A stretch of 64,000 bases of DNA from an uncultured Chloroflexia bacterium (GTDB lineage Bacteria; Chloroflexota; Anaerolineae; B4-G1; SLSP01): positions 1-64,000 of the forward strand of contig CAVVUS010000040.1 in the NCBI GenBank assembly GCA_963751345.1. The letters are read 5' to 3'. The notes under the pieces were generated by a model. It worked only from the letters and a program-made list of their open reading frames with translations. It ran no database searches and was not told the DNA's origin. Shown piece after piece: positions 23,754 to 30,359 of this stretch (position 1 is the stretch's first letter; every line of letters starts with the position of its first letter). The translations under genes and the position numbers were made by a program.

Positions 23754-25862
23754 ATGACCCTTCCACTCGATTACGAAGAACGCGTCTACGCCGGTGTGCT
23801 CGGCAAGATCATCGGTGTCTATCTGGGCCGCCCGTTCGAGGGTTGGCCCTATGGCCGCATCACGCACGAGCTCGGCGACATCAACTACTACGTCCACGAG
23901 CAACTCGGCAAGCCGCTGATCGTCACCGATGACGATATCTCCGGCACCTTCACCTTCGTCCGCGCCCTTGAGGACTACGGCAATGACCGGGGAATCACGC
24001 CTGCCCAGATCGGGCAGACTTGGCTGAACTATCTCATCGAGGAGCGCACGGTGCTCTGGTGGGGTGGGATGGGCAACTCCACGGAGCATACCGCCTACCT
24101 GCGGCTGAAGTCGGGCATCCCGGCGCCCCGCAGTGGCTCGATCGCACTCAACGGCCAAGTCGTGGCCGAACAGATCGGGGCGCAGATCTTCATCGACGGC
24201 TGGGCGATGGTGGCGCCCGGGGACCCCGCGTTTGCCGCAGACCTCGCGCGCCGGGCCGCCAGTGTCAGCCACGACGGGGAGGCCATCTACGGGGCGCAGG
24301 TCCTCGCGGCTATGGAGGCGCAGGCCTTTGTCGAGCCCAATCTCGATGCCCTGATCGATACCGGCCTCCGCTTTATCCCGAAGGACGCTGTCATCCACCG
24401 GATGATCGGCGAGTTGCGCGAGCTCCGGGTCCGCGAGGACGACTGGCGGGAGGCGCGGAGCTGGCTCGATGCTCACTACGGCTACGCCATCTACGGCGGC
24501 AACGTCCACATGGTGCCCAACCACGGCTTGATGATTCTGAGCCTGCTCTACGGCGACGACGACTTCCAGAAGACGCTGATGATCGTCAACACCTCGGGCT
24601 GGGATACTGACTGCAACAGCGGCAACGTCGGCTGCCTCATGGGCATCAAGAACGGGCTCGCGGGGCTCGCACAGGGCCCAGACTACCGCGGCCCGGTGGC
24701 CGACCGCCTCTACCTGCCCACTGCCGACGGCGGGCGCGCCGTCACCGACGCCGCAAGTGAAACTTACCGCCTCGTCAACAGCGGGCGCGGCCTGCAGGGA
24801 CTCGCCCCGCTGCTGCCGAAAGGCGGGCCACGCTTCCACTTCGATCTACCAGGGGCGGTTCAGGGGTTCGTGCCCGACAACGCAACGGACGCCCGCGGAA
24901 CGCTGCGACTGGAAAACGTCGAAGGGCATAGCGCAGCCGGGCACCGGTCGCTGGCGCTGCACTTCGAGGGCGTGGCCACGGGCCGGGTCGCCCGCGCCGG
25001 CACGGCGACCTTCCTCACGCCCGAGGCAGCACAGATGCCCGGATATGGCCTGATCTGCTCCCCCACCCTCTACGCAGGACAGACCGTGCGAGCGCGGGTC
25101 GAGGCCGGCGCAGCCAACGCCAAGCCGGTCACCTGCAATCTCTACCTGCGGATGTACGGCTCGGACGACGTCCCCATTACCCGGCGCGGGCCGCAGGCCG
25201 TATTAGGGCCGGAGGCCGCGCACGATTTCGTCTGGCCGATCGACGATACCCAGGGCGCCCCGATCGCGGAGGTAGGGCTGGAGGTGCACTCGGCTTCTCG
25301 AGCTGACGGCACCGTCTACCTGGACACGCTGACCTGGGATGGCACCCCGGACGTCACGCTGACACTGCCGCCGCACGGCGGCACGATGTGGACGCGGGCG
25401 TGGGTGGACGCCGTTGATCACGTGTGGTTTGGACCGTCGATCCGCATCAGCCAGGACCGCGGCACGGGCCTGCTCATCCAGGGCACGCGTGAATGGACCG
25501 ACTACGAGGTCGAGGCCACCATCAGGCCGCACCTGGCGCGCCGCACGGGTATCGCAGCACGGGTCCAGGGCTTGTCGCGGTACTACGCGCTCCTGCTGTG
25601 CGACGATCGGAAACTCCGGCTCGTCCGGGCGCTCGACGGCGAGAGCGTCCTGGCCGAAGTAGACTATGAGTGGCAGCTCGACGAGCAGTACGATCTGCGT
25701 CTCTCCGTTCGCGGGACATCGTTGGAGGCCCGGGTCAATGACGAACTCATCGCGACGGCCGAGGTCCCTCTCGAACCGCTCGACTGCGGGGCCATTGCCC
25801 TCGTCTGCGATGTGGGACGTATCGACGTTGGTCAGGTCCGCGTTCACGCAAACGGGGGTTGA
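23754..25862 (+). CDS. ADP-ribosylglycohydrolase family protein with C-terminal beta-sandwich region
   Basis: GVYLGRPFEGW, VTDDD, GAQIFID, GWDTDCNSGN motifs. Confidence 0.82.
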   Translation: MTLPLDYEERVYAGVLGKIIGVYLGRPFEGWPYGRITHELGDINYYVHEQLGKPLIVTDDDISGTFTFVRALEDYGNDRGITPAQIGQTWLNYLIEERTVLWWGGMGNSTEHTAYLRLKSGIPAPRSGSIALNGQVVAEQIGAQIFIDGWAMVAPGDPAFAADLARRAASVSHDGEAIYGAQVLAAMEAQAFVEPNLDALIDTGLRFIPKDAVIHRMIGELRELRVREDDWREARSWLDAHYGYAIYGGNVHMVPNHGLMILSLLYGDDDFQKTLMIVNTSGWDTDCNSGNVGCLMGIKNGLAGLAQGPDYRGPVADRLYLPTADGGRAVTDAASETYRLVNSGRGLQGLAPLLPKGGPRFHFDLPGAVQGFVPDNATDARGTLRLENVEGHSAAGHRSLALHFEGVATGRVARAGTATFLTPEAAQMPGYGLICSPTLYAGQTVRARVEAGAANAKPVTCNLYLRMYGSDDVPITRRGPQAVLGPEAAHDFVWPIDDTQGAPIAEVGLEVHSASRADGTVYLDTLTWDGTPDVTLTLPPHGGTMWTRAWVDAVDHVWFGPSIRISQDRGTGLLIQGTREWTDYEVEATIRPHLARRTGIAARVQGLSRYYALLLCDDRKLRLVRALDGESVLAEVDYEWQLDEQYDLRLSVRGTSLEARVNDELIATAEVPLEPLDCGAIALVCDVGRIDVGQVRVHANGG

Positions 25863-25887
25863 CTTTTCGCCCAGGTTATGCTAGAGT
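25859..25887 (+). promoter_or_regulatory. sigma70-type promoter of the citrate synthase operon
   Basis: TTGACT (25859-25864), 17-nt spacer, TGn-TAGAGT (25882-25887). Confidence 0.7.
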
Positions 25888-25908
25888 CTTACCATTATCA
25901 GCAACACG

Positions 25909-25992
25909 ATGAGCAACGTTATGATCCTACTTCTGGCTAGCCGACAGCCTAATAAGCCTCAGCCTATGCCACCCTCCACGCGGGGCGGTTGA
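25909..25992 (+). CDS. putative attenuator leader peptide MSNVMILLLASRQPNKPQPMPPSTRGG (27 aa)
   Basis: Short ORF between promoter and terminator; its stop codon lies within the candidate antiterminator strand. No clear SD. Confidence 0.55.
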   Translation: MSNVMILLLASRQPNKPQPMPPSTRGG

Positions 25993-26025
25993 TGCTTTAC
26001 AACTAGCCACCACCTGAGCCAAATC

Positions 26026-26059
26026 AACCAGCCTACCGCAAGTAGGCTGGTTTTCGTTT
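26026..26059 (+). terminator. intrinsic terminator (attenuator) in the citrate synthase leader
   Basis: 11-bp perfect stem AACCAGCCTAC / GTAGGCTGGTT, loop CGCAA, followed by TTCGTTT. Confidence 0.8.
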
Positions 26060-26205
26060 ACGTGAGAGTAGGCGAGGGGTCAGGGCTTGATGTGACGGGA
26101 GGAGAGAGATGTCGATGGGACTACGCGCAGATTCTATGGAGACAGCCACAACCCGCGCTTGCGGGGCTTCCAGAGCCCTCGAGGACACCTCAGAGGACGC
26201 GCAGG

Positions 26206-27363
26206 ATGCAGCAGCCGATGCCGATACGCATGACGGTCACGCCCGCCATCCACGAGGGGCTCGCAGGCGTCGTGATCGGCCACAGCAAAATCTGCGCCGT
26301 CAACGGTGAGCAGGGGACACTCAGCTATCGCGGCTATGATATCGGTGAGATGGCATGTCATGCCAGCTTCGAGGAGACCGTCTACCTTCTCTGGTACGGC
26401 GACCTGCCCACGCAGGACCAACTCACAGACTTCACCGGGAGATTGGTCGCCGAGCGTGAGATCGAGGATGCGGTGTGGCGCATTCTCACCTTGCTCCCGA
26501 CAAACGTCGAGCCGATGGACGCCCTGCGTACCGCCGTGTCGGCCCTCTCGTGTGCTGAGGAGAACAGCAGCACATCGAGCGCCGCCGCAAATGAGGAACA
26601 GGCCACGCGCCTCGTCGCCAGAGTGCCCACGATCGTAGCGAATTACTATCGCCACCAACATGGCCTGGAGCGCATCCATCCGGATCCCACGCTGGGTCAC
26701 GCCGCGAATTTCCTCTATATGATCCACGGGGAGACGCCGACCGGGATGACGGTGAGTTCCATGGATCTGGCGATGCTCTTGATGGCAGAACACGGCTACA
26801 ACGCGTCAACCTTCGCCGCGCGCGTCACCGCAGCGACGCTGGCCGACATGTATTCGGCGGTGACGACGGCAGTTGGTACACTCAAAGGTCCCTTGCACGG
26901 CGGCGCAAACCGGCGGGCTATGCAGATGATGCTGGAGATTGGGGACGCGGCCAACGCGGAGAGCTACATATCGGACGCACTGGCGCGAAAAGAGCGCATC
27001 ATGGGCTTTGGGCACCGCGTGTACCGCGGCGCACCCGATCCTCGTTCGGCCTATCTGCGCGGTCGCCTCTACGAGCTGTGCGCTGAGATGGGTGACTTTC
27101 ACTTCTATGAGCTCGCCACGGCCATCGCGGAGACCGTAGAGGCGAAGAAAGGCCTCTACCCCAACGTCGATTTCTACGCAGCGCCTGTCCTTTATCTTCT
27201 CGGGATCCCGCTGTCACTCTTCGTGCCTGTCTTTGCCGCCAGCCGAATACCGGGCTGGACGGCTCACGTGATGGAGCAGCAGACGAACAACCGCATCATC
27301 CGGCCGCTCTCTGCCTATGTCGGGCCGGAGAACCGGACTTATCTCCCAATTGAACAAAGGTAG
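26206..27363 (+). CDS. gltA: citrate synthase (Si-type)
   Basis: YRGY, EHGYNASTF, GPLHGGAN, GFGHRVY, DPR, YPNVDFY, RIIRP. Start uncertain: ATG 26206 or 26230, or ATG 26109 (strong GGAGGAG SD) with a frameshift near 26240. Confidence 0.9.
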   Translation: MQQPMPIRMTVTPAIHEGLAGVVIGHSKICAVNGEQGTLSYRGYDIGEMACHASFEETVYLLWYGDLPTQDQLTDFTGRLVAEREIEDAVWRILTLLPTNVEPMDALRTAVSALSCAEENSSTSSAAANEEQATRLVARVPTIVANYYRHQHGLERIHPDPTLGHAANFLYMIHGETPTGMTVSSMDLAMLLMAEHGYNASTFAARVTAATLADMYSAVTTAVGTLKGPLHGGANRRAMQMMLEIGDAANAESYISDALARKERIMGFGHRVYRGAPDPRSAYLRGRLYELCAEMGDFHFYELATAIAETVEAKKGLYPNVDFYAAPVLYLLGIPLSLFVPVFAASRIPGWTAHVMEQQTNNRIIRPLSAYVGPENRTYLPIEQR

Positions 27364-27379
27364 GCCCAGGAGGGCAACG

Positions 27380-29320
27380 ATGGGACAAACACTCGCCGAG
27401 AAGATCATCGCAGCCCATCTTGTCGAGGGGGACCCAGCCATGGTTCCCGGACACGAGATCGGCATCAGAATCGACCACACGCTAACGCAGGACGCTACAG
27501 GGACGATGGCCTGGCTGGAGTTTGAAGCGATGGGCATTGCAGCGGTGCGCACGGAGCGTTCGGTAAGCTACGTCGATCACAATATGATCCAGGCCGACTT
27601 CCGCAACGCCGACGACCACCGCTATCTTCAGACGGTGGCCGCTCGCTATGGGGCATACTTCTCCCGACCGGGAAACGGCATCTGTCACCAGGTGCAGTCA
27701 GAGCGCTTCAGCGTGCCCGGCAAGACGCTGTTGGGCTCGGATAGCCACACGCCCAACTCGGGCGGGCTGGGTACGCTGGCCATCGGTGCCGGCGGTCTGG
27801 ACGTGGCCGTGGCGATGGGTGGCGGGCTATTCTACACACCGATGCCTACCGTGGTCGGCGTCAAGTTGACCGGCGCGCTCCAGCCCTGGGTCACGGCAAA
27901 GGAAGTGATTCTGGAACTGCTGCGCCGCTTGACGGTCAAGGGCGGGGTCGGCAAGGTCATCGAGTATTTCGGCCCCGGCGTCGCGGGGCTGACCGTCGAC
28001 CAACGCACAACCATCTGCAATATGGGCGCCGAGCTTGGCGCGACATCGTCGATCTTTCCCAGCGACGAGCAGACGCGCCGCTATCTCGTCGGCCAAGGCC
28101 GCGAGGATGATTGGCAGCCCCTCAGTGCCGATCCCGATGCAATCTACGCAGAGACTATCGAGCTCGACCTCGGCGACCTGGAGCCGCTCATCGCGCTGCC
28201 CTCGATGCCCGACAAAGTTGTGCCGGTCAGGGACGTCGCCGGACTCCCCGTCGCCCAGGTCTGCGTGGGGTCGTGTGAGAACTCGTCGTACGAGGACCTT
28301 ATGACTGTGGCCGCTATCCTCAAGGGCCGGCAGGTACATCCCTCGCTCAGTATGACCGTCACGCCAGGCAGCAAACAGGTTTACGCGATGGTCGCCAAGA
28401 ACGGCGCCCTCGCAGATATGATCTCCGCCGGGGTGCGGGTGCTGGAATCCGCCTGCGGCCCGTGCCTCGGGATGGGCCAGGCCCCTGCCAGCGGGGTCGC
28501 CTCACTACGCTCGTTCAACCGCAACTTCAAAGGGCGCAGCGGCACGGCCGATGACTCCGTCTATCTCGCCAGCCCCGAGACGTGCGCCGTGACCGCGCTG
28601 ACCGGCATCATCACCGATCCACGCCACTGGGGTACGCCTCCTCAGGTCTCACCGCCCGCTGCCTACCTCGCCGACGACAACATGATCGTCCCGCCGGTAT
28701 CACCGGAGGCGGCTGCGCAGGTCGAGGTGATCCGCGGTCCGAACATCAAGCCCGTGCCGATCGGCAAGCCATTGCCCGATAGCCTTGAGGGCAAGGTCCT
28801 GATCAAGGTCGGCGACGACGTGACCACAGATCACATTATGCCCGCGGGGGCCGAGATCCTGCCGCTGCGATCGAACATCCCGGCCATAGCCGAGTATGTC
28901 TTCTACCGCGTGGACCGCCAGTTCGTGAAGCGCGCGAAGGATTGGGGGGGTGGCATCATCGTGGCCGGGGACAACTATGGCCAGGGATCCAGCCGGGAGC
29001 ACGCAGCGCTGGCGCCGATGTACCTTGGCGTCACCACCGTCATCGCCCGGTCCTTCTCGCGCATCCATTATGCTAACCTGATCAACGCTGGGATCGTGCC
29101 GCTGATACTGGATGATCCCAGCGACTATGACACGCTGGAGATGGGCGACGAGCTGGTGATCCCAGGGCTGCGCGAGGCCCTCGAGAACGGCAAGCCGGTC
29201 ACCGTCGAGAATCGCACCAAGGGCGTGACCTACACCGTCACCCCCGACTATTCGGACAGGGAGCTGGCCAATCTGCTGGCTGGCGGCCTGCTTGCCCACA
29301 TCCGGGCGACGGAGGCATAG
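27380..29320 (+). CDS. acn: aconitate hydratase (short anaerobe/Aquifex-type)
   Basis: TQDATG, SYVDHN, GICHQV, GSDSHT, GSCENSS, ACGPCLGMG, RSFNRNF.GR, TTDHIMPAG, GQGSSREHAA. Confidence 0.9.
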   Translation: MGQTLAEKIIAAHLVEGDPAMVPGHEIGIRIDHTLTQDATGTMAWLEFEAMGIAAVRTERSVSYVDHNMIQADFRNADDHRYLQTVAARYGAYFSRPGNGICHQVQSERFSVPGKTLLGSDSHTPNSGGLGTLAIGAGGLDVAVAMGGGLFYTPMPTVVGVKLTGALQPWVTAKEVILELLRRLTVKGGVGKVIEYFGPGVAGLTVDQRTTICNMGAELGATSSIFPSDEQTRRYLVGQGREDDWQPLSADPDAIYAETIELDLGDLEPLIALPSMPDKVVPVRDVAGLPVAQVCVGSCENSSYEDLMTVAAILKGRQVHPSLSMTVTPGSKQVYAMVAKNGALADMISAGVRVLESACGPCLGMGQAPASGVASLRSFNRNFKGRSGTADDSVYLASPETCAVTALTGIITDPRHWGTPPQVSPPAAYLADDNMIVPPVSPEAAAQVEVIRGPNIKPVPIGKPLPDSLEGKVLIKVGDDVTTDHIMPAGAEILPLRSNIPAIAEYVFYRVDRQFVKRAKDWGGGIIVAGDNYGQGSSREHAALAPMYLGVTTVIARSFSRIHYANLINAGIVPLILDDPSDYDTLEMGDELVIPGLREALENGKPVTVENRTKGVTYTVTPDYSDRELANLLAGGLLAHIRATEA

Positions 29321-29324
29321 ATAG

Positions 29325-30359
29325 ATGGCACAGACTATCTATCCGGTCACGCTCATACCCGGTGACGGCATCGGCCCGGAGGTCACAGGCGCCGCACGAC
29401 GCGTCCTCGAGGCCACAGGGGTGGCCTTCGCATGGGACGTTCAGGTTGCCGGCGCTGAGGTCGTCGAGACGGAGGGCACCCCTCTACCCGAGAGAGTCTT
29501 GGATTCGATCCGGACCAACGCCGTGGCCCTCAAGGGCCCTATCACCACGCCGGTGGGCTCAGGATTCCGCAGCGTCAACGTAGCGATACGGAAGGCGCTT
29601 GACCTCTACGCCAACATTCGTCCTGCCGTGACGATGCGCGGGCTACCAAGATCGCGACCAGACGTGGACCTGGTCGTCGTCCGTGAGAACACTGAGGGGC
29701 TTTACGTCGGCATCGAACACGAGGTCATCCCCAACGAGGCCGCCGAGGCCATTCGCATCATCACCCGTAGGGCAACTGAGCGCGTCGTCCGGTTCGCCTT
29801 CGAATATGCTCGCAGGAACCGGCGCCGCCAGGTCACGGCAGTGCATAAGGCGAACATCCTGAAGATCACGGACGGGCTTTTCCTGCGGGTCGCGCGCGAG
29901 GTGGCAGCGGATTACCCGGACATCGCCTTCAAGGATATGATCGTAGATGCTATGTGCATGCAGTTGGCACTCCAGCCGGAGGCCTACGATGTGCTCGTGC
30001 TTCCCAATCTCTTCGGCGACATCGTGAGTGATCTGGCTGCAGGGCTGGTGGGCGGACTCGGCGTCGTCCCCGGCGCCAACATCGGCGAGGACCTCGCGGT
30101 CTTCGAGCCGGTTCATGGGTCTGCCCCCGACATCGCCGGGCAGGACCTTGCCAATCCAACGGCAGCCATCCTCACCGGCGCCCTGATGCTGCGCCACCTG
30201 GGCGAACTGGAGGCGGCGGTGAGGGTTGAGGCCGCCATCGCTGCGGTCATCGCTGCCGGCGAGGTCGTCACGCCGGATCTCAAACCCGGGCGGCCCGAGG
30301 CCGTGGTCGTCGGCACCCAGGCATTCGCCAACGCGGTCATCCAGCAGTTGGAGAGATGA
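29325..30359 (+). CDS. icd: isocitrate/isopropylmalate dehydrogenase family, most likely NAD-dependent isocitrate dehydrogenase
   Basis: [60 protein letters not shown]; follows citrate synthase and aconitase. Confidence 0.8.

Follow-up and report, generated by a model that had tools for sequence, protein, structure and literature searches.

Amino-acid operons of Escherichia coli, among them trp, his, leu, thr, pheA and ilv, are controlled by leader-peptide attenuators. In trp, the more stable of the two alternative structures is the terminator, not the antiterminator, and the choice between them is therefore kinetic. To our knowledge, leader-peptide attenuators control the last, pathway-specific steps of amino-acid synthesis and belong mostly to Proteobacteria and Actinobacteria. 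The principle of leader-peptide attenuation is set out in PMC1183508. Like the E. coli type, the locus described here has a promoter-proximal short open reading frame (ORF), four RNA segments that could pair as 1:2, 2:3 and 3:4, an intrinsic terminator ahead of its first enzyme gene, and a stop codon at which a terminating ribosome would mask segment 2. It differs in lacking a match to an Rfam leader family, in having scattered Pro and Gln codons instead of a tandem run, in its targets, which are a central-carbon branch (citrate synthase–aconitase–isocitrate dehydrogenase) or citrate synthase–proBA, and in its host phylum, the Chloroflexota.

The mgtA leader of Salmonella carries a comparable reading frame, mgtL, which is rich in proline codons. 
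Its counterpart in the mgtCBR leader of Salmonella, mgtP, is likewise a Pro-codon-rich leader ORF, and PMC3641672 reports that low amounts of tRNA-Pro carrying proline raise downstream transcription in an attenuation-like manner, that consecutive Pro codons are conserved and that replacing the Pro codons was the defining experiment. The leader studied here resembles both in being a short ORF rich in Pro codons (here by codon counts only). The genes that mgtP and mgtL control, however, serve Mg2+ transport and virulence instead of proline synthesis or the supply of carbon to it; neither leader is described as having classical terminator hairpins arranged as here, and no sequence relationship is expected.

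In Bacillus subtilis, proBA and proI have Pro-specific T-box leaders. The logic is the same, in that uncharged tRNA-Pro relieves a terminator before proline biosynthesis genes, but T-box RNA binds tRNA directly without a leader ORF, and no T-box match occurs at our leader. Bacillus citZ-icd-mdh and citB are under the control of protein factors (CcpC, CcpA and CodY), as is gltA in E. coli. There too, the same enzymes are regulated as a unit by the need for 2-oxoglutarate and glutamate, but through DNA-binding proteins at promoters, whereas the control point here would be a terminator in the 5′ leader. TnaC and SpeFL are metabolite-sensing arrest peptides that act through Rho, with a conserved peptide binding its ligand in the tunnel. 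As is proposed here, the translation state of a short leader ORF decides whether transcription continues; our locus differs from them in its intrinsic terminator and in the little conservation of its peptide.

The locus lies in a stretch of 64,000 nucleotides from an uncultured Chloroflexia bacterium (contig CAVVUS010000040.1), hereafter the window. We read it as a classical ribosome-mediated transcription attenuator that responds to the charging of tRNA-Pro (and tRNA-Gln), and give this reading a probability of roughly 0.55. Judged from its sequence, the leader is most likely a novel case of an already known mechanism, ribosome-mediated attenuation. Searches of the literature outside subscription journals found no paper on such a leader before citrate synthase.

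Organization of the locus

Upstream of the citrate synthase–aconitase–isocitrate dehydrogenase operon lie, in order, a promoter, a short ORF and a strong terminator (table 1). The features named in the initial annotation of this DNA are present at the positions given there.

Table 1. Positions of the leader features and operon genes in the window.
Feature	Position	Strand	Details
Sigma-70-type promoter	25859-25887	+	-35 TTGACT 25859-64, 17-nt spacer, -10 TAGAGT 25882-87
Leader ORF, 23 codons, MILLLASRQPNKPQPMPPSTRGG	25921-25992	+	stop TGA 25990-92; equivalent ORF open in 11/11 genomes
Segment 1, 5′ strand of leader hairpin (GGCUAGC, GACAGC, UCAGCC, GCC.CC)	25935-25973	+	consensus fold
Segment 2, GCGGGGCGGUUGAU, contains leader stop codon	25980-25993	+	pairs with segment 1 or segment 3
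3′ strands of the two outer helices of the leader hairpin (GCUUUA, CUAGCC)	25994-26008	+	consensus fold
Segment 3, AUCAACCAGCCUACCGC, terminator 5′ strand and loop	26023-26039	+	antiterminator partner of segment 2
Intrinsic terminator, 11-bp stem AACCAGCCTAC/GTAGGCTGGTT, loop CGCAA, then UUCGUUU	26026-26059	+	-17.7 kcal/mol
Shine-Dalgarno GGGAGGAG (26097-26104) and citrate synthase ATG (26109-11)	26097-26111	+	conserved
Citrate synthase (type II)	26109-27363	+	TIGR01800, 486 bits, cut-off 421
Aconitate hydratase (650-aa type)	27317-29320	+	NF005558, 957 bits, cut-off 612
Isocitrate dehydrogenase-like enzyme (Iso_dh family)	29325-30359	+	best NCBIfam model isocitrate dehydrogenase, 425 bits, below cut-off 510

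The promoter has an extended -10 element (TG at 25879-80; TGcTAGAGT, 25879-87), and transcription would start near 25894. It is the sole promoter-like site on the + strand between 23000 and 31000, and the arrangement of TTGAC(A/T), a spacer of 16-17 nt and a -10 element is found in the window and in its relatives L001, L002, L003, L005, L008, L012, L014 and L015. Judged from the window alone, these features are not beyond chance: 8 kb of it contain two promoter-like sites, with 1.3 expected, and three terminator-like sites, with 2.9 expected. The element rises above chance through conservation, since the promoter–ORF–terminator unit also stands before citrate synthase in 10 further genomes.

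The initial annotation had allowed that the hairpin might only terminate the transcript of the upstream hydrolase gene, with gltA having a promoter of its own beyond 26060. This proposal is contradicted by the locus itself, as the hydrolase gene ends at 25862, inside the -35 box, and the promoter comes after it; the upstream gene also varies among loci, and no + strand promoter-like site was found between terminator and citrate synthase in the window, L003, L005 or L014. The same evidence bears on a second arrangement, in which the unit would be an independent gene for a small RNA or small protein with its own terminator, and citrate synthase would be expressed separately. Such a gene would account for the unit having its own promoter and terminator and for its G+C content of 49-56%, against about 67% in the flanks. 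It is nevertheless highly improbable, given that in 11 genomes the unit keeps its place immediately before citrate synthase, on the same strand, whereas the genes upstream of it vary, that the peptide has no family match, and that the promoter-free interval between the terminator end and ATG 26109 is just 49 nt in the window. The window contains no tRNA or tmRNA genes.

Distribution among Chloroflexota

A genome scan confirmed 592 citrate synthase loci, of which the best 80 supplied the relatives. In searches of these with nhmmer and a covariance model, the window and 10 other Chloroflexota genomes (L001, L002, L003, L005, L014, L015, L012, L004, L008 and L010) each had the element immediately upstream of citrate synthase, on the + strand, and neither search found further copies elsewhere in the window or the 80 loci. 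Identity is 76-78% for the leader DNA where it is 72-73% for citrate synthase at the protein level. The distant members L004, L008 and L010, which score 16-22 bits with the covariance model of the close clade, keep the ORF, stop site and terminator rather than the hairpin sequence. A scan for ORF and terminator units before citrate synthase found none outside Chloroflexota in those of the 80 loci with at least 300 nt upstream; its T-run rule missed L002. The upstream unit of L010 has an ORF and a terminator, but a 2:3 duplex no better than shuffles.

The leader precedes citrate synthase–aconitase–isocitrate dehydrogenase in eight genomes and citrate synthase–proB–proA in L014, L015 and L012; these three relatives tie the leader to proline synthesis. 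L011 also has citrate synthase–proB–proA, on a contig that begins inside citrate synthase and so lacks the leader region.

The leader open reading frame

A leader ORF of 27 codons starting at ATG 25909 (MSNVMILLLASRQPNKPQPMPPSTRGG, 25909-25992) had been described for this locus. The ORF exists and is conserved, but the conserved start is ATG 25921, giving 23 codons: the upstream ATG is in frame only in the window and L001 and was rejected, whereas ATG 25921 is invariant in five of five close relatives and forms an invariant island amid variable sequence. The frame itself is free of internal stop codons in all 11 genomes, as compared with 3 of 22 cases for the other two frames. Translation would end at a common GGN-stop site in 10 of the 11, with TGA, TAA and TAG all used there; in the exception, L003, one extra G shifts the stop six codons downstream. 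Insertions and deletions within the ORF are mostly multiples of three, such as a 6-nt deletion in L002 and the alternation of CGA-CCU, CGA-CAG-CCU and CGC-CAG-CAG-CCU among leaders.

Shine-Dalgarno sequences before the leader ATG are weak or absent in most genomes (window, L001, L002, L010 and the L014 clade), and L004 and the second ATG of L008 alone have good ones. Counted by codon position, variable columns number 10/13/11 of 22 for the close clade and 12/7/11 of 22 for the proBA clade, without three-base periodicity in either, and the leader peptide itself is therefore not under protein-like selection. The missing periodicity fits a leader peptide, yet it gives no positive evidence of coding. 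NCBIfam and Pfam gave no match at E≤10 to the nine of 11 leader peptides scanned, a set that omitted L001 (nearly identical to the window) and L010 (under 20 aa).

The leader hairpin

The 1:2 pairing originally proposed, of ACCCTCC (25971-77) with GGGGCGGT (25982-89), was correct in its strings and forms the tip of a larger hairpin, in which 25935-25973 pairs with 25982-26008. Segment 1 lies inside the ORF (codons 5-18, including R8 Q9 P10 N11 K12 P13 Q14 P15), and segment 2 is the best conserved block of the leader. Over hairpin and terminator, 89.7% of cells in the alignment are paired. Three pairs in the outer helix, and four overall when the terminator is included, are kept through changes on both sides, for example GGCUAG/CUAGCC versus GGUUAG/CUAACC in L003 and L005. 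In the antiterminator, the five close sequences hold no compensatory change. The stability of the leader hairpin is not above that of shuffles (z -0.29); for the full leader with terminator z is -2.05.

A small molecule or RNA-binding protein that acts on this hairpin could also set the terminator/antiterminator switch, leaving the small ORF incidental. The weak Shine-Dalgarno sequences and the substitutions without periodicity agree with this, as do the blocks CGACAGCCUAA and GGGGCGGUUGAUGC, invariant at every codon position in the close clade, and the motif AGCC, which occurs seven times in about 130 nt. We consider such a switch unlikely, because what is kept between lineages is the ORF, with its start, stop position and multiple-of-three indels, while the distant hairpins differ in sequence and 1:2 register; all three stop codons are used at one site, and the hairpin is not unusually stable. 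No riboswitch-type aptamer core conserved independently of the reading frame was found across the distant members. Rfam gave no match at gathering scores in the whole window, and at E≤10 the interval 25700-26300 gave four chance-level matches, none of them to a leader, riboswitch or T-box family.

Terminator and antiterminator

The terminator, whose stem pairs 26026-36 with 26042-52, is present with a T run in all 11 genomes at -17.7 to -25.6 kcal/mol. It begins 26-39 nt after the ORF stop (17 nt in L003). For the competing 2:3 pairing, the strings first noted, GGCGGTTGAT (25984-93) and ATCAACCAGCC (26023-33), proved correct, and the pairing extends further: GCGGGGCGGUUGAU (25980-93) pairs with AUCAACC-A-GCC-UA-CCGC (26023-39) over 14 bp at -21.6 kcal/mol. 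By comparison, 500 dinucleotide shuffles of segment 2 gave -11.5 ± 2.4 kcal/mol, with a fraction of 0.002 (about 1 of 500) reaching the duplex of the window. Across the 11 genomes the 2:3 duplex ranges from -18.5 to -25.4 kcal/mol and beats shuffles in eight (fraction as good ≤0.026), the weaker fractions being 0.068 in L012, 0.102 in L015 and 0.156 in L002. Differing terminator loops are accompanied by a matching segment 2, as in L008 (GGGGUUUGG/CCAAACCCC), L010 (GGGGGUCCGG/CCGGAACCCCC) and L014 (GGGCCGGU/ACCGGUUC); the antiterminator complementarity is re-created by other sequences in the distant lineages.

The core of the attenuator reading is thus supported by a reading frame and terminator kept in 11 of 11 genomes, by the re-creation of the antiterminator complementarity, by the lack of another + strand promoter-like site before citrate synthase in the window, L003, L005 and L014, and by the variation of the upstream genes. 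As first put forward, with 1:2, 2:3 and 3:4 pairings controlling citrate synthase, aconitase and isocitrate dehydrogenase, the model stands in this core on comparative grounds; its start codon and its roles for Arg and for an ILLL run do not.

Folding with a ribosome on the leader

Equilibrium folding of the full leader was calculated for the 11 genomes with a ribosome placed at each codon. Full-length window RNA keeps the terminator at every ribosome position, as is the case in 8 of 11 overall, and the terminator is lost only in L003, L005 and L010. For the window, no clean switch emerges at equilibrium, so that switching would have to be kinetic. A second model was used because the equilibrium model cannot show the switch; here transcripts were cut before segment 4. 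In 9 of 11 genomes, pairing of segment 3 in the cut transcripts is high with the ribosome mid-ORF and lower with it on the last codons or stop. From mid-ORF to stop it falls from 0.72 to 0.20 in the window, 0.72 to 0.35 in L001, 0.64 to 0.32 in L002, 0.91 to 0.47 in L005, 0.64 to 0.33 in L014, 0.62 to 0.35 in L015, 0.70 to 0.33 in L012 and 0.92 to 0.56 in L010. L004 has no ribosome-dependent change and L008 a small one only, and the cut window transcript without a ribosome already favours the antiterminator (0.70).

Proposed mechanism and candidate amino acids read

In the proposed mechanism, transcription would begin at the conserved promoter and produce a 23-codon ORF lying within the hairpin of segments 1 and 2, with its stop codon in segment 2. 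Segment 2 could alternatively pair with segment 3, the 5′ strand and loop of the terminator. A ribosome that reads the whole ORF would cover segment 2 at the stop codon, the 3:4 terminator would form, and most transcripts would stop near 26059. A ribosome paused within codons ~4-16 (R Q P N K P Q P) would instead mask segment 1 and leave segment 2 free; the freed segment 2 would capture segment 3 as it emerges, no terminator would form, and RNA polymerase would enter citrate synthase–aconitase–isocitrate dehydrogenase. Without translation, 1:2 and 3:4 together are predicted to be the most stable fold. The anatomy, its conservation, the complementarities and the gene links are observed; that the ORF is translated, where ribosomes stall, which amino acid is sensed and in which direction regulation runs are inferred.

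The codon content of the leader suggests proline. Of 254 leader residues 48 are Pro, whereas the same DNA gives 25 and 16 when read in its two other frames, and window genes have 5.9%; Gln makes up 20 of 254, against 3 and 5, and 2.8% in window genes. CCT accounts for half of the leader Pro codons but for 10% of Pro codons in window genes, and the Pro and Gln codons are placed where stalling would favour the antiterminator. Most likely, Pro codons (rare CCU/CCA) are the regulatory ones, with Gln as a second signal, although frame 0 is not the Pro-richest frame in L015 or L010, and although CAG-CCU resembles the CAGCCU of the terminator and some Pro/Gln codons may serve RNA pairing. The initial annotation had taken Pro, Gln and Arg codons, as members of the glutamate family, to be sensed. 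This is only partly right: Pro and Gln are enriched, but the counts give no support to Arg, which is not enriched (22 of 254; other frames 17 and 16; background 6.4%), or to Glu, which is depleted (3 of 254). Its alternative of an ILLL run as a branched-chain sensor was rejected, for L003 has MTPNMV, L002 MMSIHGL and L005 MALTLV instead.

The same anatomy would be expected of a ribosome-mediated attenuator that reads no specific amino acid and reports translation capacity or ribosome–polymerase coupling, with slow Pro codons setting the timing. In keeping with this, the leaders share no conserved run of one repeated codon; their Pro codons are dispersed, as PxP, and number just 2-3 in the proBA clade. 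We doubt this explanation, as most lineages have an excess of Pro and Gln in the frame that would be read and the proB–proA tie of one clade is hard to explain without a link to proline. Less probable still is that the nascent peptide (R-Q-P-x-K-P-x-P ... G-stop) arrests the ribosome in response to a metabolite, like TnaC or SpeFL, and not through tRNA charging. Across lineages one finds an R-(Q)-P motif with spaced prolines after it, and a Gly as the last residue ahead of the stop; XPP motifs occur in 5-6 of 11 leaders, including those of the window, L001, L002, L003 and L004 (PPV). Amino-acid conservation beyond these few residues is low, however, a ribosome arrested at the stop would cover segment 2 and so promote termination, and RNA pairing also accounts for the GGU before the stop.

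With tRNA charging as the signal, scarcity of charged tRNA-Pro or tRNA-Gln would lead to more of the enzymes producing 2-oxoglutarate, from which glutamate, proline and glutamine derive; the cell probably raises the enzymes of the citrate synthase operon on proline or glutamine shortage. Most bacteria make Gln-tRNA from Glu-tRNA by amidation, so that Gln codons could report glutamate and nitrogen status together. More tentatively, and at slightly less than even odds, a Pro/Gln-decoding leader peptide may govern entry into the oxidative TCA branch in Anaerolineae-type Chloroflexota, and the proline pathway in a sister clade; the boldest form of this view would make R-Q-P-x-K-P-x-P a metabolite-sensing arrest peptide.

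A textbook type of device would thereby have been found in a poorly studied phylum, before the enzymes that supply the carbon skeleton of the glutamate family, 2-oxoglutarate. If the reading is true, leader-peptide control would be seen here for the first time in a TCA-branch operon and, by way of an intrinsic terminator, in proline biosynthesis. Confirmation would mean that the charging of tRNA can directly determine how much flux enters a central-carbon branch and that proline and glutamine join the amino acids read by classical attenuators, and would make covariance model R1 an easy marker for annotating such operons in metagenome-assembled Chloroflexota genomes.

The genes behind the terminator

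The isocitrate dehydrogenase-like gene is the last of the operon, as the next gene lies on the opposite strand. At the other end, GGGAGGAGAGA-ATG before citrate synthase is kept in five of five close relatives (with one base different in L005), and the ATG equivalent to 26109 opens the citrate synthase frame in L001, L002, L003 and L005. In the window, one extra base near 26231-26236 breaks the frame of ATG 26109; the body of citrate synthase follows the frame of 26062, in which ATGs occur at positions 26206, 26218 and 26230.

The leader and its operon

The leader ahead of citrate synthase consists of a promoter, a small open reading frame (ORF) and a terminator, and the strings and coordinates reported for it in the initial annotation were all correct on re-reading of the window sequence. 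The G+C content of the leader region is 49–56%, against ~67% in the flanks. The citrate synthase, aconitase and Iso_dh-family genes form the operon, since the next gene lies on the opposite strand. Only 49 nt separate the T run of the window terminator from the conserved SD-ATG (26097–26111), and the rival proposal that gltA has its own promoter downstream of the hairpin gained no ground: in the window and three relatives (L003, L005 and L014), the stretch from terminator to citrate synthase is free of + strand promoter-like sites.

Features of the leader region and operon in the window
Feature	Position	Strand	Details
Sigma-70-type promoter	within 25859–26059	+	TTGACT, 17-nt spacer, TGcTAGAGT
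Short ORF	25909–25992	+	
Leader hairpin (1:2), 5′ strand	25935–25973		within ORF
Leader hairpin (1:2), 3′ strand	25982–26008		holds stop codon
Segment 2	25980–25993		can pair instead with 26023–26039 (terminator 5′ strand and loop)
Terminator hairpin (3:4)	26026–26059	+	11 base pairs, then UUCGUUU
ADP-ribosylglycohydrolase-domain gene, upstream	ends 25862		end within −35 box of leader promoter
Citrate synthase, first gene downstream			TIGR01800, 486 bits
Aconitate hydratase, 650-aa type, second gene downstream			NF005558, 957 bits
Iso_dh-family dehydrogenase, third gene downstream			best model isocitrate dehydrogenase, 425 bits, below model cut-off

By themselves, the window features are not beyond chance. 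An 8-kb scan of the window found two promoter-like sites where 1.3 are expected and three terminator-like sites where 2.9 are expected, and the leader hairpin is as stable as shuffled sequence (z −0.29). No Rfam family matched the window leader.

Distribution among relatives

The genome collection was scanned once with the citrate synthase protein, and the best 80 of 592 confirmed candidates were used as loci (L numbers). The closest relative among these is L001, a Chloroflexota metagenome-assembled genome whose citrate synthase is 97% identical in protein sequence; L002, L003 and L005, labelled Anaerolineae, follow at 72–73%. Leader DNA identity to the window is 94% in L001 and 76–78% in L003, L005 and L002. 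Leader DNA thus equals the neighbouring citrate synthase protein in conservation, a level seldom met between genes.

A covariance model built on these five close sequences (the window, L001, L002, L003 and L005) was run over the window and the 80 loci. The five score 125–168 bits, and six further loci (L014, L015, L012, L004, L008 and L010) score 16–29 bits. Together these matches place the element ahead of citrate synthase in 10 further Chloroflexota genomes among the best 80 of 592 loci; every match is on the + strand and immediately upstream of citrate synthase, and the window gives a single match. Those of the best 80 of 592 loci with at least 300 nt of upstream sequence were also scanned for a small ORF that stops shortly ahead of a terminator; this returned the same Chloroflexota set only, L002 being missed owing to the T-run rule of that scan. 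The element is absent in L009 and L016, where citrate synthase identity is 59–60%. The gene upstream of the leader varies among loci.

The small ORF

The start originally chosen, at 25909, has to be abandoned, as no sequence but the window and L001 has an in-frame ATG there. All five close sequences share the ATG at 25921, although the bases flanking it vary. Read from this ATG or its counterpart, all 11 genomes keep an open frame, of 18–28 codons, whereas the other two frames of that span lack stops in just 3 of 22 cases. In 10 of the 11 the stop falls at one common GGN-stop site, as TGA, TAA or TAG according to lineage; the exception is L003, where a G run is one G longer and the stop is thereby pushed six codons further downstream. 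Indels within the ORF are mostly multiples of three across the 11 leaders (L002 has a 6-nt deletion), and the R-(Q)-P motif is spelled CGA-CCU in L004, L008 and L010, CGA-CAG-CCU in the window clade and CGC-CAG-CAG-CCU in L014. On this comparative reading, a leader peptide would be expected to look just so, with an open frame and fixed ends in otherwise drifting sequence.

The variable columns fall evenly on the three codon positions, which counts against a protein-like gene, and a profile search of nine of the 11 leader peptides against NCBIfam and Pfam gave no family match; that the open frame is an independent small gene is highly improbable, and that it encodes an arrest peptide only slightly less so. 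The Shine–Dalgarno sequence before the leader ATG is weak or missing in most members, which is the main weakness of the case for the putative ORF. A switch set by a ligand or protein, with the ORF incidental to it, is an unlikely reading.

Alternative pairings and ribosome position

Folded together, the five close sequences give a consensus of one long hairpin with the terminator after it; across the two, 89.7% of cells are paired. Four pairs have changed on both sides and still pair, three of these in the outer helix of the hairpin (for example, GGCUAG/CUAGCC versus GGUUAG/CUAACC). The antiterminator (2:3) in the window comprises 14 pairs at −21.6 kcal/mol, against a mean of −11.5 ± 2.4 kcal/mol for shuffles of segment 2, of which a fraction of 0.002 of 500 (~1) equals the observed duplex. 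The fraction of shuffles matching the 2:3 duplex is ≤0.026 in 8 of 11 leaders; the weaker cases are L012 (0.068), L015 (0.102) and L002 (0.156). Within the close clade the 2:3 pairing is 90% intact and shows no compensating change. Comparative support for 2:3 comes instead from distant lineages, because their terminator loops differ and each is matched by its own segment 2; the partners are GGGGUUUGG with CCAAACCCC in L008, GGGGGUCCGG with CCGGAACCCCC in L010 and GGGCCGGU with ACCGGUUC in L014.

For the 11 leaders, the ribosome was modelled as a 27-nt footprint set along the leader ORF and the RNA was folded. At equilibrium the full-length leader keeps its terminator at every ribosome position in 8 of 11, the window included, and loses it only in L003, L005 and L010. 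Since the full-length RNA keeps the terminator wherever the ribosome sits in these eight, the switch cannot be thermodynamic; that of the E. coli trp attenuator is likewise not known to be thermodynamic. In a second model the transcript stops just short of the terminator's 3′ strand, the moment of choice. Here segment 3 is mostly paired to segment 2 when the ribosome is mid-ORF and is freed when it occupies the last five or six codons or the stop, with a small change in L008 (0.62 to 0.49) and no ribosome-dependent change in L004.

Segment 3 pairing in cut transcripts by ribosome position
Leader	Mid-ORF	Last codons or stop
Window	0.72	0.20
L001	0.72	0.35
L002	0.64	0.32
L005	0.91	0.47
L014	0.64	0.33
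L015	0.62	0.35
L012	0.70	0.33
L010	0.92	0.56

Even with no ribosome placed, the antiterminator is favoured in the cut window transcript (0.70), and the complete window RNA with 1:2 plus 3:4 is much more stable (−47.3 kcal/mol). A state in which lack of translation leads to termination therefore rests on folding order and on 1:2/3:4 stability.

What the leader may sense

Residues were counted over the 11 leader peptides (254 residues), with six window genes as background. Judged against the other frames and this background, the read frame is rich in Pro and Gln and poor in Glu, and shows no excess of Arg. Of the Pro/Gln/Arg tract in the initial annotation, the counts support Pro and Gln as candidate sensed residues, but not Arg; the branched-chain alternative falls, as the ILLL run is not kept in relatives.

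Residues encoded by the leader ORFs
Residue	Read frame	Other two frames	Six window genes
Pro	48	25 and 16	5.9%
Gln	20	3 and 5	2.8%
Arg	22	17 and 16	6.4%
Glu	3	0 and 9	5.6%

CCT makes up half of leader Pro codons versus 10% of Pro codons in window genes, and the central Arg codon is in most cases CGA, a codon that accounts for 7% of Arg codons there. Window codons 8–15 (RQPNKPQP) fall within the zone where, in the folding, a stall frees segment 2. The Pro codons stand in PxP spacing, not in tandem, leaders of the proBA clade (L014, L015 and L012) have only 2–3 of them, and in L015 and L010 frame 0 is not the Pro-richest. Part of the Pro/Gln codon pattern may stem from RNA pairing, as the terminator strand contains CAGCCU too. 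An attenuator without specificity for any amino acid is improbable, to the same degree as a ligand- or protein-set switch.

The leader precedes citrate synthase–aconitase–IDH in the window, L001, L002, L003, L005, L004, L008 and L010. In the proBA clade the leader-borne citrate synthase is followed by proB (glutamate 5-kinase) and proA (glutamate-5-semialdehyde dehydrogenase), with a citrate synthase–proB gap of 13 nt in L014, 28 nt in L015 and 420 nt in L012; L011 has the same three genes on a contig that starts inside citrate synthase. This arrangement joins a Pro-codon-rich leader to the proline pathway, and of all the arguments on what is sensed it is the strongest.

The most likely reading, with a probability of roughly 0.55, is a classical ribosome-mediated attenuator that senses the decoding of Pro and probably Gln; ribosome-mediated attenuation of any kind is distinctly probable. 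Slowed decoding of Pro, and probably also of Gln, would yield more citrate synthase, together with aconitase and IDH or with proBA. The proposed manner of working is that of the trp, his and leu attenuators, although their Rfam models are unmatched by the leader. Proline sensing through a leader ORF, as proposed here, is described for Salmonella mgtP in PMC3641672, where, unlike the citrate synthase leader, it controls Mg2+ transport and virulence genes. No leader-peptide control of citrate synthase or proBA was found in the literature searched, whose scope excluded older subscription-journal attenuator work, and the sections consulted of PMC2965389 and PMC4833913 do not mention it.

Further features of the loci

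In L003 (2765–2786), the extra G in the segment 2 G run carries the leader stop into the outer helix, on its 3′ strand. Either the assembly has a homopolymer error here, or the variant is real and its geometry altered. L010 carries a second unit upstream of its leader (2489–2690), with a promoter-like TTGACA-17-TAGAAT, a 23-codon ORF (2546–2617) ending GSG-stop as the downstream leader does, and a terminator (2654–2680) whose 3′ half matches the tail of the window terminator. This unit has the look of a tandem duplicate, but shuffles match its 2:3 complementarity and its folding does not depend on ribosome position. In L008 (2752–2902), a second strong terminator (2862–2894, −26.4 kcal/mol, T8) with no ATG-started small ORF ahead lies between the leader terminator and citrate synthase, and may be a second, different control element. 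The citrate synthase–proB gap of L012 (4195–4613) holds a G+C-rich hairpin directly after the citrate synthase stop, and proB may be separately controlled there.

L009 has two tandem citrate synthase copies, since the C-terminal end of one is encoded directly upstream of the other (2600–2760); the downstream copy has its own promoter-like site without the leader element. Seven Acidobacteriota loci (L054, L056, L059, L067, L073, L075 and L079), with citrate synthase homologues 41–42% identical to the query, share a near-identical terminator-like hairpin, GAGGGGCGG...CCGCCCCUU and then a T run, ~140–175 nt ahead of the citrate synthase-like gene. The hairpin has no small ORF ending shortly before it; it may mark where the upstream gene ends, or be a leader element of another sort.

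In L001, L002, L003 and L005, citrate synthase is in frame with the conserved SD-ATG at 26109. The window sequence is one base longer within a small divergent stretch (26231–26236), which throws this ATG out of frame: its ORF stops after 66 aa, at 26309, and the body of the enzyme lies in a different frame that has ATGs at 26206, 26218 and 26230. The extra base could be an assembly indel or a recent frameshift, or an internal start could be used. Before the enzyme domain, the window (26109–26230) and the same four relatives encode an N-terminal extension of ~35–45 residues, loosely conserved as MS..G.ADS.E....
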